A stretch of DNA of 64,000 nucleotides from Bacteroidota bacterium (GTDB lineage Bacteria; Bacteroidota; Bacteroidia; AKYH767-A; 2013-40CM-41-45): NCBI GenBank assembly GCA_031417395.1, contig JANOVM010000036.1, positions 56,956 through 120,955 on the forward strand, written 5' to 3'. A program made the position numbers and the translations under genes. The notes beneath the pieces were generated by a model that worked only from the letters and a program-made list of their open reading frames with translations, had not been told where the DNA came from and did not search any database. Every line of letters starts with the position of its first letter. Position 1 is the first letter of the stretch. Positions 1,529 through 31,234 of this stretch are shown here, in pieces.

Positions 1529-1651
1529 ATATGTTCAGGGCGATAGGTTTTTATAAATTTAATTAAGCAATCAAAAATAGTTAATTTATTTATTTATTTA
1601 TTATTTGAAGTATTTAGCATAACCAACTATTATTTTATTTAAAGGAAGTTT

Positions 1652-2183
1652 ATTATCTGCAATTAACTTTGCCTTATATCCATTATGATTGTAAACCTTA
1701 TAACCTTAGTAACAAGAATCAACTCCCCACGAACTAACCTTATTACCTTTCTGAAAGTATACTATCATAAAAATTGAACACAACAACCATTGCACCAATT
1801 TTATTTTAATCAACCCTAGCTCGATATTGGAAAAAATTTAAAGAAGAGTATGATGCGTTAAACAGGAATTATAGAAGAGGAATAAAATAGGAATAAGGTA
1901 ATAAGGTCTTTATTGGTTATTCTGTTTTGTTACTAAGGTAATAAGGTCTTATATTCCTTAAATAATCGATGGTTTACACTAACATCCAAAATTTGAAACA
2001 TTTGCCATCTAAGGAAATATTTTATCTGCAATTAACTTTGCCTTATATCCATGATGATTGTAAACCTTATTACCTTAGTAACAAGAATCAACTCCCCACG
2101 AACTAACCTTATTACCTTATTGAAAGTATACTATCATGAAAGTTGAATACAATAACCATTGCACTCATTTTATTTTAATCAAT
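1652..2183. repeat. Paired-box repeat cluster, locus 1: two ~160 bp direct copies (1652-1812, 2021-2183; ~93% identical) flanking an inverted partial copy
   Basis: The 12-mer CCTTATTACCTT and its complement AAGGTAATAAGG occur as three pairs at about 1696/1737, 1895/1936 and 2066/2107. Each pair has 41 bp spacing and sits next to TAGTAACAA. Confidence 0.6.
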
Positions 2184-4209: not shown

Positions 4210-5556
4210 TTAACGGTTTACTATTATTTTTCTTGTTGTTATGCCAAGTTTTGTTTTAATGTAAACTATGTATAAGCCGTTAACATCAAGGTTTAAGATT
4301 GTCGAATTTTCCGTTGTTTGATTTTTTATTATTTGTTTTCCAAACATGTCTGTGACTATTATTTCCGCAAAGTCAGTAAAAAGATCAATTTTAAATTCTC
4401 CGGTAGAAGGATTCGGATAAATAGAAAACAAATTATTTTCTTCCATGTTTTTATCTATACTTGAAATTATTCCTGTAGTGGTTCCCTGAAAATAAAGCGA
4501 TAACGGAAAATTTCCCTGTTGTCCGGTAAATACTGCTGCCGGAACACGGATTAAAAATGTGTGATTACCGGCAGTAACAGGACCCAGATTAATTCTTCTT
4601 ATATCTATTACATCTCCCGGACACCAATTACTAAATGATTGCCACTGAGCGCTGGATTTAGCCGATGGGCCATAAATTCCATTAGCCTGGGTATTGTATT
4701 GGCGGAATGGCTCACAGGTCGGACGCCCCGGCCTGTAGGAAAGAACTAAAGAACTATCAAAATAGGCGTAATGCCATCTTCTAATGTATTCTTCACCACC
4801 GGTATTTGAACCATGATTGGATGTAATGAGAAAAAAGGCAGCGTCTGTTAAATTATTGGGAACATTAAACGATATGGTCTTTGTTGTTTTTCCAATAGTG
4901 TCAGTCGCATCGGTCTGATAGTTATTGAAATTGTTTTTAAAGAATAAGGGTATCAAAACATTTGTATTTTGAGGAAGAGCAGAGGCGTTTGTTACAAATT
5001 CCAGTTTCCCCATAAAGACATCGTTACGTCCGGAGCAGCCGGCCACTTGTGTTTGAGCAGCGTATGGAACTCCAAATAAAGACAGCTCGATCCATATATC
5101 AAAATTATTTGTTATGGCAGTATCTTTCAAAAGCATGGCAACATTGTCTACATTAAAAGTAAAAGGAACTGAATCAGGTTGAATGTTTTTATTCATAAAA
5201 GGAGTAATAAATCTTCCAAGTTCAATGCGCTGCACGCTATCCGGAGTATATGTCGCAGAACCGATGGGAACTAAAGCCATATTCACATTTCCAATCCTGT
5301 CATAATTATCACATAATGCTTTAATGGTAACATTCATCTGCAAAGTAGTACCGATGGAAAGAAGTTCAGTGCTTGTCAGTTTTCTTGCAAATAAATCATT
5401 TGAATGTTTTATTACGCCGGCAGGCGGAGGAGGATTGGTGACAAATGCAGCATAACCATCAAAATAAATAATACTATCCATTACGGTAATGGTTGTTTGT
5501 GCTGTAGAATGTATTACAGCAAATGCAAATGTCAGTAGTAATAAATATTTTTTCAT
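4210..5556 (-). CDS. PNGase F-like (peptide-N4-(N-acetyl-beta-glucosaminyl)asparagine amidase F family) secreted protein with T9SS C-terminal sorting domain
   Basis: Signal peptide. ELGRFITPF, NHGSNTGGEEYIRRWHY and NWCPGDVIDIRRINL resemble the EIGRFITPY, GWGHAKP...AEWCFRTH and NWAPDRAGWCPG segments of Elizabethkingia PNGase F (compared from memory). C-terminal IYPNPSTGEF...IVNR matches the T9SS type-A CTD pattern. Confidence 0.55.
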   Translation of the reverse strand: MKKYLLLLTFAFAVIHSTAQTTITVMDSIIYFDGYAAFVTNPPPPAGVIKHSNDLFARKLTSTELLSIGTTLQMNVTIKALCDNYDRIGNVNMALVPIGSATYTPDSVQRIELGRFITPFMNKNIQPDSVPFTFNVDNVAMLLKDTAITNNFDIWIELSLFGVPYAAQTQVAGCSGRNDVFMGKLEFVTNASALPQNTNVLIPLFFKNNFNNYQTDATDTIGKTTKTISFNVPNNLTDAAFFLITSNHGSNTGGEEYIRRWHYAYFDSSLVLSYRPGRPTCEPFRQYNTQANGIYGPSAKSSAQWQSFSNWCPGDVIDIRRINLGPVTAGNHTFLIRVPAAVFTGQQGNFPLSLYFQGTTTGIISSIDKNMEENNLFSIYPNPSTGEFKIDLFTDFAEIIVTDMFGKQIIKNQTTENSTILNLDVNGLYIVYIKTKLGITTRKIIVNR

Positions 5557-5875: not shown

Positions 5876-6076
5876 AATTTTGATTAATCAAATAGTAATA
5901 GTCGTAATCATTAGAGGATCATGTGGTCGTCAAGAATATACGCAAACTGTAATTTTCCTAGTTTCAATTACCTCACCTCAAATATAGTAAAAACAAACCT
6001 ACTATTGATTCATAAAATTCTAATTTTTAACGATAATATATCATCGGGTATAAGCATTTCAGTACCGGAAACCATA

Positions 6077-6523
6077 TTATTTTGCCAGATTAATTAATTC
6101 TCTTTCCAACCGATCAAAGTTTTCTTCATTTTTGGGAATTACAAATCGTTTGATTTTTTCACATTCTTCGGCGGTATTGAAAATCATTCTAAAAGATATT
6201 TTAGACTTTGAATCATTGATGTATGCAAATTCCACTTCCATATCGAATATTGGCTGAGAGACCCTTTTCCAGGAAATTAATTTGTTGGGCAAAACTGTTT
6301 TAAATATAGATGAGTTTTCGTAATGACCATTTTCCGGTCCATGCATAGTCAAAGTCCGCTTTCCTTCAGGCCGTAAGTCAAATTCATGAATAGTATTTGT
6401 AAATCCTTCAGGTCCCCACCAGCTTTGTAAATGCAATGGATTAGCAAAAGCATTATAAACTGACTCTACAGATGCATTTACTATTCTTGAACTGTATATT
6501 TTATAATCGGGATTGGAATTCAT
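6077..6523 (-). CDS. SRPBCC-superfamily protein (AHSA1 / activator of Hsp90 ATPase homolog-like)
   Basis: 148 aa. SWWGPEGF...TLTMHGPENGHYEN pattern typical of the AHSA1-like SRPBCC family. Confidence 0.5.
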   Translation of the reverse strand: MNSNPDYKIYSSRIVNASVESVYNAFANPLHLQSWWGPEGFTNTIHEFDLRPEGKRTLTMHGPENGHYENSSIFKTVLPNKLISWKRVSQPIFDMEVEFAYINDSKSKISFRMIFNTAEECEKIKRFVIPKNEENFDRLERELINLAK

Positions 6524-6534
6524 GTATTTTAAAA

Positions 6535-7430
6535 TTAATTAAATATTTTGTCTAAAGTTGGTTTTTGAGCTAATAAATGTCTGGCACCAAAAACAATTAA
6601 GACATTCTCATTATATTGAAAGCTATTGTAAATATTTCTTAAAATTACACTGTCTCGAATTTGTAAAGAATTACTTTGGATTTCACTAAACGGTACCCGG
6701 TCAAATTCTGTTTGCGCCAATTCAAAATTATTTAAGTCAATAGTTTTATTTTCATTGTTAACCTTATACAAGTTTTCAAAGTAGAGCCATAAACTTTCTT
6801 TGTCTGAAAGAATGATTTTGCATCTAAGTTTAATATATTTTTCAATAAAATAATTATATTCAAAATTCAAATCTTTAGCATCATTATAACCAGAAACAAA
6901 TTGAGGAATAAATCTCTGCATAACTAAAAAATAAAGAATCTGATTGCTATCATATTTTTTTAAAAGCCCTGTAATTTCAATACTATCAGGGCAATCCGCA
7001 TTTTGCAGTTTTATCTTAAAAGAATCGGCTAAAAATTTTAAAAATCCAATGGTTCCTTTTTTTGAATAGCCTCTTCTCTGGTAGTAAAACGTATGCTATC
7101 AGAAACCTGTCCGCCTTCGTTTAATATTAATGATGGTTTGAAAAGTGAAATATATTTTTGAATGGTATCAAATCTATTGTCTTTTGGATCATTTCCATGT
7201 TGTTCCCATAAATAGATTAAATGTTTTGTTCCTTTCAACTTGTTATAAACTATTATAGGGAAATATCCATTGTTTTTTTGTAGTATTTCCTGAACTTGAT
7301 TGTTAACTTCTAAATAACTTTTGGTCTCAATCACAGGCATAGGGCCAAGCGCATTATTATTTGTTTGAAGGTTGCAGGCAAATAAAATTGTCAAAGTCAA
7401 AATTTTAAATATTTTCTTGAAAGTTTTCAT
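6535..7430 (-). pseudogene. TraB/GumN-like secreted protein gene split by a frameshift at a T7/A7 homopolymer (ORFs 7038..7430 and 6535..6921)
   Basis: N-terminal ORF has a lipoprotein signal and KGTKHLIYLW (GTxH-like). C-terminal ORF has VLIVFGARHLLAQ (GAxHL-like). The downstream frame stays open upstream through 7057-7063 (TTTTTTT on the + strand) and overlaps the end of the upstream ORF. Confidence 0.4.
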
Positions 7431-30418: not shown

Positions 30419-30625
30419 TTAATAAGCGGGAAAGTCTATAAATAAATTGAAATTCACTATGAAATTTGTTTTAAAAGGTCACGTATTTGTAAACTCATCA
30501 TCACCTTTGAATGTAAAATGAATTTTCGAAAAAAATTATTTTCAAATATTTTTTGATAAATTGGAATTTATAAAATCATAAATTCGTTATAATTAATGTA
30601 GTTTTGGATTATTTCGGTTCATAAA

Positions 30626-31100
30626 ACCTTATTACCTTAGTAAAAAGACATAATATCACCATAGATTACCTTATTACCTTATTTCCCATTTTATTCCTCT
30701 GTGATAATGCTTGATTAAGTCATCATTCTCTTCTTTAATTGTTTTTTTTTCTTGTTGTGTTCGGATTGATTAAAGTAAAATGAGTGCAATGGTCGTCGTA
30801 TTCAATTTTAATAATTGGATACTTTTAATTTGGCAATAAGGTAATAAGGTAAGTTTATTGGGATCTGATTTTTGTTGCTAAGGTAATAAGGTTTACAATC
30901 GCCATGAATTTAAGACTCAGTTCGTCGTAAATAATAAACTTTTTAAAATAAGGTTGTCGTATTCAATTTTTAAAATAGGATACTTTTAATTTGGCAATAA
31001 GGTAATAAGGTAAGTTTATTGGGATCTGATTTTTGTTACTAAGGTAATAAGGTTTACAATCGCCATGAATGTAAGACTCGGTTCGTCGTAAATAATAAAC
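30626..31100. repeat. Paired-box repeat cluster, locus 2: one forward box pair (30627/30668) plus two direct ~150 bp copies (30790-30950, 30960-31100) each carrying an inverse box pair
   Basis: CCTTATTACCTT at 30627 and 30668. AAGGTAATAAGG at 30838/30880 and 31007/31049, spacing 41-42 bp. Same TAGTAAnAA / TTGTTnCTAAGG flanks as locus 1. Confidence 0.6.
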
Positions 31101-31234
31101 TTTTTTATATAAAAAAATATAGTTAAAATTAATATTTCAAATAAATAATAGTTACATATATTAACTATTATTTATACTTGATAAAATTCACAAAAACCTA
31201 CCGTTAAGAGTATAGCAATTGGATAGTTTATTAA

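Follow-up and report, generated by a model that had tools for sequence, protein, structure and literature searches.

Paired boxes in two long intergenic spacers

The window, by which we mean the whole 64-kb stretch of DNA analysed here, contains two long intergenic spacers that carry the same short repeat. Locus 1 lies inside the spacer 1529-2283, with an esterase gene on one side and an ORF of 428 aa on the other, and locus 2 lies inside the spacer 30419-31234, which extends from the gene of a T9SS-tail protein to sdhB. Both loci had been placed upstream of minus-strand genes in a preliminary description of this DNA, which is correct, but each spacer also lies downstream of another minus-strand gene. 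At up to one mismatch and on both strands, the box CCTTATTACCTT occurs 12 times in the window against 0.54 expected, and no more than two matches were obtained in any of 100 shuffled versions of the window. The 12 boxes make up six double-box modules, three per locus (1696-2118 and 30627-31052), and neither a regular-expression search nor nhmmer detected further or degenerate box copies in the 64 kb. The earlier claims of six box pairs confined to two long intergenic regions, and of a genuine dispersed element family rather than chance, are borne out by these counts. The parts of the two loci, as read against the complete elements of other genomes described below, are as follows.

Locus 1
Box starts: 1696 (plus), 1738 (plus), 1895 (minus), 1935 (minus), 2065 (plus), 2107 (plus)
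1582-2012, plus strand (gene sense): mini-element (nhmmer with the five-copy alignment, E 2.4e-113)
1696-1749, plus strand: left-end module, outer box 1696-1707 (CCTTATAACCTT, one mismatch), inner box 1738-1749
1767-1901, plus strand: Y1 gene remnant, ATA replacing ATG, followed by KIEHNNHCTNFILIN
1895-1946, plus strand: right-end module, inner box 1895-1906, outer box 1935-1946
2011-2183, plus strand: partial second copy (nhmmer E 3e-47, profile positions 283-463)
Locus 2
Box starts: 30627 (plus), 30669 (plus), 30838 (minus), 30880 (minus), 30999 (minus), 31041 (minus)
30482-30950, minus strand (gene sense): mini-element (nhmmer with the five-copy alignment, E 1.9e-128)
30627-30680, minus strand: right-end module (the forward pair of the preliminary description), outer box 30627-30638 with TTTTTACT before it on the minus strand, inner box 30669-30680
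30674-30812, minus strand: Y1 gene remnant, read against full-length L020 and L047
30838-30891, minus strand: left-end module, inner box 30838-30849, outer box 30880-30891
30892-30950, minus strand: lineage-specific extension beyond the outer left box (GGTTTACAATCGCCATGAATTTAAGACTCAGTTCGTCGTAAATAATAAACTT)
30952-31170, minus strand: partial tandem copy (nhmmer E 3.5e-50, profile positions 307-515)

While the six units had been regarded as one kind, their alignment in one orientation separated two types. Four units share about 160 nt (1696/1738, 2065/2107, 30838/30880 and 30999/31041), and the remaining two (1895/1935 and 30627/30669) have another inner flank; the first type are left-end modules with a remnant of the 5' part of a gene, and the second right-end modules with a remnant of its 3' part. 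The start-to-start spacing of the boxes is 42 nt in five of the six pairs, as reported earlier for the family, but 40 nt in the pair 1895/1935. Likewise, the first box of the forward pair at locus 2 starts at 30627 as described, but the second starts at 30669, and it is the 14-mer ACCTTATTACCTTA that starts at 30668. The flanks TTTTGTT(G/A)CTAAGG and GGTTTACA are present as claimed. Tandem duplication at locus 2 was also confirmed, with a unit of 161 nt rather than about 150 bp (30791-30951 and 30952-31112, 94% identity) and with TCGTCGTA at both boundaries of the duplication.

A single mini-element of about 430-470 nt is present at each locus and consists, along its sense strand, of a left extension (about 55-110 nt), the left module, the Y1 gene remnant, the right module and a right extension. 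By blastn, the mini-element of locus 2 is 75-81% identical over about 430 nt to loci L017, L007 and L040 elsewhere, to which the mini-element of locus 1 also aligns. The GGTTTACAATCGCCATGAATTTAAGACTCAGTTCGTCGTAAATAATAAACTT extension is common in the alignments to all left-end copies of the window and to these three loci, and GTTGCT, in plus-strand reading, stands on the gene-proximal side of the outer left box 30880-30891. In the remnant of locus 2, the 5' part keeps the first ~15 codons, with ATT replacing ATG and KIEYDDHCTHFTL following, and the 3' part comprises an NQPEHH-like stretch at the junction and the last ~30 codons, KKKTIKEENDDLIKHYHRGIKWEIR and stop; the frame is broken at a poly-A run. 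The remnant of locus 1 has the same deletion junction, and its 3' part reads KEEYDALNRNYRRGIK, where TAG has replaced TGG. At the junction THFIL is followed by NQPEHHKK, about 300 nt of the gene being deleted, and no full-length Y1 gene was found by tblastn in the 64-kb window. A poly-A/T run lies at the junction in both loci (30740-30752, nine T on the plus strand, and 1810-1835); its length varies among copies and sets the reading frame of the remnant.

The additional units are partial copies. At locus 2, the distal part of the left-side extension comes after the 161-nt duplicate 30952-31112, in which a left module with boxes at 30999-31010 and 31041-31052 stands between its extension and about 20 nt from the 5' end of the gene. 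At locus 1, the partial copy abuts the first copy head-to-tail; its left module (2065-2076 and 2107-2118) has only a short extension on the left, the gene is represented by its first ~16 codons from ATG 2136, and a right end is missing. Such tandem partial copies could have arisen by ordinary recombination, for which no transposase is needed.

Two further features were noticed near the distal end of locus 2. A perfect 14-nt inverted repeat, ATAAATAATAGTTA / TAACTATTATTTAT, with a 7-nt loop, occurs at 31141-31175, about 60 nt downstream of the sdhB stop and beside the end of the distal left-side extension, and it could be either the sdhB terminator or a part of the element. The Bacteroidetes -33/-7 promoter has the consensus TTTG / TAnnTTTG, and on sequence reading the motif TTTG-N16-TATATTTT on the minus strand of 31101-31150, within the left-side extension, resembles it and points toward the gene remnant and the T9SS gene. 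A promoter or operator at the boxes themselves was considered and rejected, as no clear match to this consensus was seen there.

The complete element and its Y1 gene in other genomes

When the pattern AAGGTAATAAGG-N24-36-AAGGTAATAAGG was scanned in one genome per species, at least 116 loci were obtained, which among the matches listed belong nearly all to Bacteroidota. The carriers listed include Chitinophagaceae (Segetibacter, Terrimonas, Ferruginibacter), Cyclobacteriaceae, Cytophagales, Saprospiraceae, Flavobacteriaceae (Aequorivita), Bacteroidales, Lentimicrobiaceae and Ignavibacteria. The search of other genomes proposed in the preliminary description therefore did recover copies, and the boxes proved to be conserved across Bacteroidota rather than to mark a family of one genome. 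In consensus, a module reads (A)AT-AAGGTAATAAGG-TT, then about 20-24 nt without constraint and (T)GTTACT-AAGGTAATAAGG-TT. The search pattern was also satisfied by pure (TAAGGTAA)n 8-mer arrays (L005 391-520, L021 ~6976-7035, L025 ~2851-2902 and L068 ~4788-4847); those in Psychrobacter, Arsenophonus and others look unrelated, and that of L005 adjoins the 5' end of a Y1 gene, as though a box had been expanded by slippage.

Gene and modules are associated. At 15 loci among the matches listed (L020 and 14 others), a full-length ORF of 441-444 nt lies between a left and a right module, and its product of 148 aa reads MKIEYNNLYTHFI...EHVHFLV...WQQS...CKYILNQPEHHKK...KHYQKTLKWEIR up to the stop. The left module of the complete element (CCTT orientation) consists of two direct boxes spaced by about 41 nt and ends about 10 nt before the ATG, and the right module (AAGG orientation) is its inverted copy, the inner box of which contains the TAA TAA stop codons; this arrangement holds in the full-length loci with intact flanks. 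While the pattern loci had been picked by their boxes, a second sample of 80 metagenome loci was picked by the protein alone, and nearly all 80 have a box (at most two mismatches) within 110 nt on each flank, compared with a chance expectation that we estimate at about 0.004 per flank. Boxes of the clade nearest to the query protein (at least 77% identity) stand at about -67/-26 and -1/+40. Loci at 69-76% identity belong to a more remote clade with a full inner box but only a half box in the outer position, which reads AACCTTAGTAGAAA at the left end and TTTCTACTAAGGTT at the right end; because this clade keeps only the half box, the invariant outer core is (C/T)TACTAAGGT. The clade of the window has AGTAAC, and the half-box clade AGTAG. 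The refuting condition named in the preliminary description, identification as fragments of a known IS terminal repeat, thus applies in part, in that the boxes lie at the ends of a Y1 (IS200-like) cassette, but no curated or published IS with these ends was found.

The 148-aa protein matches Pfam Y1_Tnp (PF01797) with E values of 1e-15 to 5e-20. Its match to NCBIfam transpos_IS200 is borderline (49-60 bits against a cut-off of 55), and with 17-19 bits against a cut-off of 80 for REP_Tyr_transpos it falls far below the RAYT model. The nearest solved structures are ISDra2 TnpA (2XM3, E 1.7e-8) and IS608 TnpA, with which the HUH and Tyr motifs align, and H55, H57, W95, Q96, Y115, Q119, H122 and H123 are invariant in the alignment. 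The protein is an IS200-like Y1 HUH protein with the signature of subclass 1.2, YIxNQxxHH, the assignment to this subclass being made by motif and length only. Since its dN/dS is 0.03-0.16, with dS saturated, the Y1 gene is regarded as functional. The query matches more than 4,500 protein clusters of 90% identity at E <= 1e-5, and these clusters occur mostly on 1-7 contigs. Many metagenome contigs encoding this Y1 protein are only about 1-1.5 kb long, with little beyond the cassette, as would be expected if assemblies break in flanking repeats. Near a module of Terrimonas pollutisoli (L023), two paralogous Y1 genes (4235-4642 and 5892-6248) were observed; they are of the common Bacteroidetes type (YSQIYLQFVFAVQHR...NQESHHKK) and 33-38% identical to the box-associated clade.

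No significant hairpin was detected in the modules: when 150 distinct ones were folded with DNA parameters, their z relative to shuffles averaged -0.1. The only recurring fold is a mini-stem of 4-5 bp, (G)TTAC/GTAA(T), which is missing from the half-box clade, and the inner boxes can pair into a REP-like stem only in compact doublets. A stem GUAAUAAG/CUUGUUAC was rejected, as only the GTTAC before the outer box is conserved in the 150 modules and folding equals that of shuffles. A panhandle between left and right modules was rejected as well, the spacers within an element being no more complementary than those of different elements (p = 0.09). In Rfam, the whole window gave nothing at the gathering threshold, and a relaxed scan of both loci gave only chance-level matches (E >= 0.16), on which grounds the reading of the repeats as an RNA family was discarded.

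Gene-less copies, multiplication and conservation of the boxes

Modules are widely dispersed without the gene. Among the matches listed, 102 modules are solo, 66 are in compact left-right pairs and 42 stand at gene ends; the compact doublets have 12-70 nt between their inner boxes, and in some of them a few codons from the ends of the gene are still visible. In one Segetibacter MAG, 19 modules are spread over 12 contigs and the Y1 matches are only partial or frameshifted, and in every genome sampled on several contigs the modules outnumber the intact genes, the counts being lower bounds. Arrays and tandem copies are common among the loci elsewhere. Viral contigs rarely have the pattern, with six matches in 2.9 million, and carriage by phages was set aside.

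When aligned with full elements, the window copies match both ends and leave an internal gap of about 300 nt. One and the same deletion junction was found in five copies, of which MAG JAYURB01 has three, on separate contigs, and the window the other two. The JAYURB01 copies are 75-81% identical to those of the window and have unrelated flanks. Because five copies in two genomes share one junction and differ in their flanks, the deleted derivative multiplied after the deletion, as a MITE does. The MITE-like nature proposed in the preliminary description is in substance confirmed, as these are internally deleted non-coding copies with inverted modules at their ends, several of them in two genomes. 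The boxes are under selective conservation: across the five copies they are 97% identical, against 75% for the rest, and between the two loci of the window 47 of 48 box positions are identical, against 221 of 319 elsewhere (p = 2.6e-6).

No clean pair of filled and empty sites was found among 200 loci by all-against-all megablast, and the element ends are AT-rich and fuzzy, with similarity fading gradually in the flanks. In the related genome GCA_031385005.1, which has a 92% identical SdhB and agrees with the window in the order sdhCAB, T9SS protein, PKD/DUF7619 protein, the sdhB-T9SS spacer (514 nt) contains no box; this difference could reflect loss rather than gain of the element. In a contig of the related genome (L198, 1-2928), SLFN_AlbA_2/HATPase_c_4, HNH_2 and MazG-like genes precede the sdh operon, and these genes look like a defence island. 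The soil contig L122 (2700-3960) has a full element between several compact mini-elements in a head-to-tail array with conserved inter-element spacers of about 140 nt, and in the near-identical contig L107 (4430-4672; 99% in the common flank) the array is arranged differently. This pair was rejected as an empty-site pair, as it represents two different arrangements of an element array and not a clean insertion; it suggests frequent recombination or re-insertion beside existing copies.

These observations show that the boxes are the conserved ends of a Y1 cassette, that they persist and multiply without the gene and that they are under constraint, and we consider it probable that the window holds non-autonomous mini-elements of this cassette that would be moved in trans. 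It seems rather unlikely, on the other hand, that the window copies are nothing but dead relics, that is, decayed IS200-like pseudogenes spread by local duplication and vertical inheritance, with no present or recent mobilisation in trans. Lost start codons and broken frames in the remnants agree with such decay, as do the extra units, which are tandem partial duplications (with TCGTCGTA at both 161-nt boundaries at locus 2), and the window copies are indeed old, since they are only about 70-75% identical outside the boxes. However, one junction recurs in five copies with unrelated flanks in two genomes, which points to multiplication after the deletion, plain decay does not predict boxes that are far better conserved than the rest, and gene-less modules outnumber genes in every multiply sampled genome.

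A service of the boxes to the host, with the link to Y1 being secondary, is somewhat less likely still. The boxes might be the binding site of a host factor, or part of a small regulatory RNA, a 5'UTR or a terminator, in the manner of domesticated repeats comparable to REPs that bind IHF or gyrase or stabilise mRNA. A host role would fit the identity of the 12-mer from Chitinophagaceae to Bacteroidales and Ignavibacteria in spite of saturated synonymous sites in the adjacent gene, the constant box spacing of ~40-42 nt, about four helical turns, and the position of the window copies in spacers between minus-strand genes. Yet the two mini-elements of the window are oppositely oriented relative to their neighbouring minus-strand genes, the modules have no stable fold and a spacer unconstrained in sequence, no Rfam family matches at gathering or relaxed thresholds, and the tightest and most regular context of the boxes is the two flanks of the Y1 gene. 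Finally, although the pattern also matched pure (TAAGGTAA)n microsatellites in Psychrobacter, Arsenophonus and others (L021, L025, L068), a chance or low-complexity artefact of AT-rich DNA can be set aside almost entirely, given 12 boxes against 0.54 expected, conserved flanks and hundreds of structured modules in other genomes.

Relation to known systems and possible mechanism

Taken as terminal modules of a Y1 cassette, the paired boxes resemble the REP/REPIN-RAYT systems of Proteobacteria in several respects: a low-copy Y1 HUH gene, which evolves under purifying selection, has inverted repeat copies on both flanks (in related genomes and metagenomes), and the repeat is dispersed in intergenic DNA without the gene and often clustered, as in the window, which has six modules and no gene. 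The compact inverted doublets, in which 12-25 nt separate a left from a right module, recall REPINs. Unlike RAYTs, which are class 2, the box-associated protein is on the IS200 branch (subclass 1.2); unlike REPs, imperfect palindromes of short length that fold into a hairpin and bear a GTAG or CGTC tag, the box repeat is not palindromic and its module consists of two direct boxes about 41 nt apart, and because they form no hairpin the modules are not classical REPs. REPs are also usually lineage-specific, whereas the boxes are conserved across the phylum. No specific report of RAYTs or REPINs in Bacteroidota turned up in a literature search, nor was the box sequence found in the papers searched.

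The IS200/IS605 elements IS608 and ISDra2 provide the closest solved relatives of the protein, and the likeness extends to small size, the presence of tnpA only and non-coding deletion derivatives, which in IS200/IS605 are known as PATE-type MITEs. Elements of the IS200/IS605 group are not known to have terminal inverted repeats or to make target-site duplications. The ends of the box element, in contrast, are inverted double-box modules without hairpins, and its Tyr motif is YIxNQxxHH instead of Y[IV]ENQ. What transposases of IS200/IS605 recognise, according to Quentin et al. 2018 (PMC6006769), are secondary structures in subterminal position at both ends of the element. The same study describes TnpA_Y1 subclass 1.2 as low in copy number, with divergent copies, 1.7 on average, and as occurring mainly in Bacteroidetes and Cyanobacteria; neither REPs nor IS properties are attributed to it, and terminal IS200 structures are generally lacking (PMC6006769). 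The protein described here agrees with subclass 1.2 in its length of 148 aa, its motifs (D/E)HxH, WQ and YIxNQxxHH(K/R)K, its conserved C-terminal tail of about 30 aa and its Bacteroidota hosts; it differs from the published subclass in that this clade has regular terminal modules and dispersed gene-less copies. As in TIRYTs, the Y1 gene is bounded by inverted repeats and not by hairpins, but the TIRYTs described fall into class 2 (for the most part subclass 2.1, with HTH tails) and their repeats are of the GGGG[AT][CG]A[CG] type (PMC6006769), so that both the protein branch and the repeat are unrelated to those found here. The mini-elements are like MITEs in being short and non-coding, with inverted parent ends, an internal deletion and multiple dispersed copies. 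Overall, the boxes represent a REP/MITE-like family of non-autonomous repeats that is linked to a Y1 transposase and presumably mobilised in trans.

Under the proposed mechanism, the boxes would be the recognition sites of the Y1 enzyme, and an intact Y1 copy elsewhere in the genome would move or copy box-bounded segments in trans, presumably by HUH-type single-strand cleavage and rejoining. RAYTs with REPs and REPINs, and IS200/IS605 transposases with their miniature derivatives, may serve as analogues. The constant spacing of about 41 nt would fit binding on one face of duplex DNA. To our knowledge, all characterised Y1 enzymes recognise hairpins, and modules without a fold are therefore a difficulty for recognition of the boxes by a Y1 enzyme. 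A bolder possibility, which we put forward only tentatively, is that Y1 gene and repeat form an ancient and mostly vertical partnership across Bacteroidota, including Ignavibacteria, which would be an independent analogue of REPIN-RAYT on the IS200 branch and in which direct 12-mer boxes in helical phase, not hairpins, would be recognised. If that partnership is true, it would represent a mode of DNA recognition that is new among HUH Y1 enzymes, and a box identical throughout the phylum would point to a role at the level of the host.

For the window itself the consequence is modest, in that both long spacers are largely decayed mobile DNA. More broadly, the box modules explain intergenic regions of unusual length in Bacteroidota genomes, together with probable breaks in their assemblies, and they offer a candidate DNA substrate for a widespread Y1 HUH subclass to which PMC6006769 assigned no function. 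If recognition is truly hairpin-free, the repertoire of HUH enzymes would be wider, which is of interest for sequence-specific ssDNA tools, and the family supplies a second, independent case for the question how populations of REPIN-like repeats are maintained alongside a single-copy transposase.
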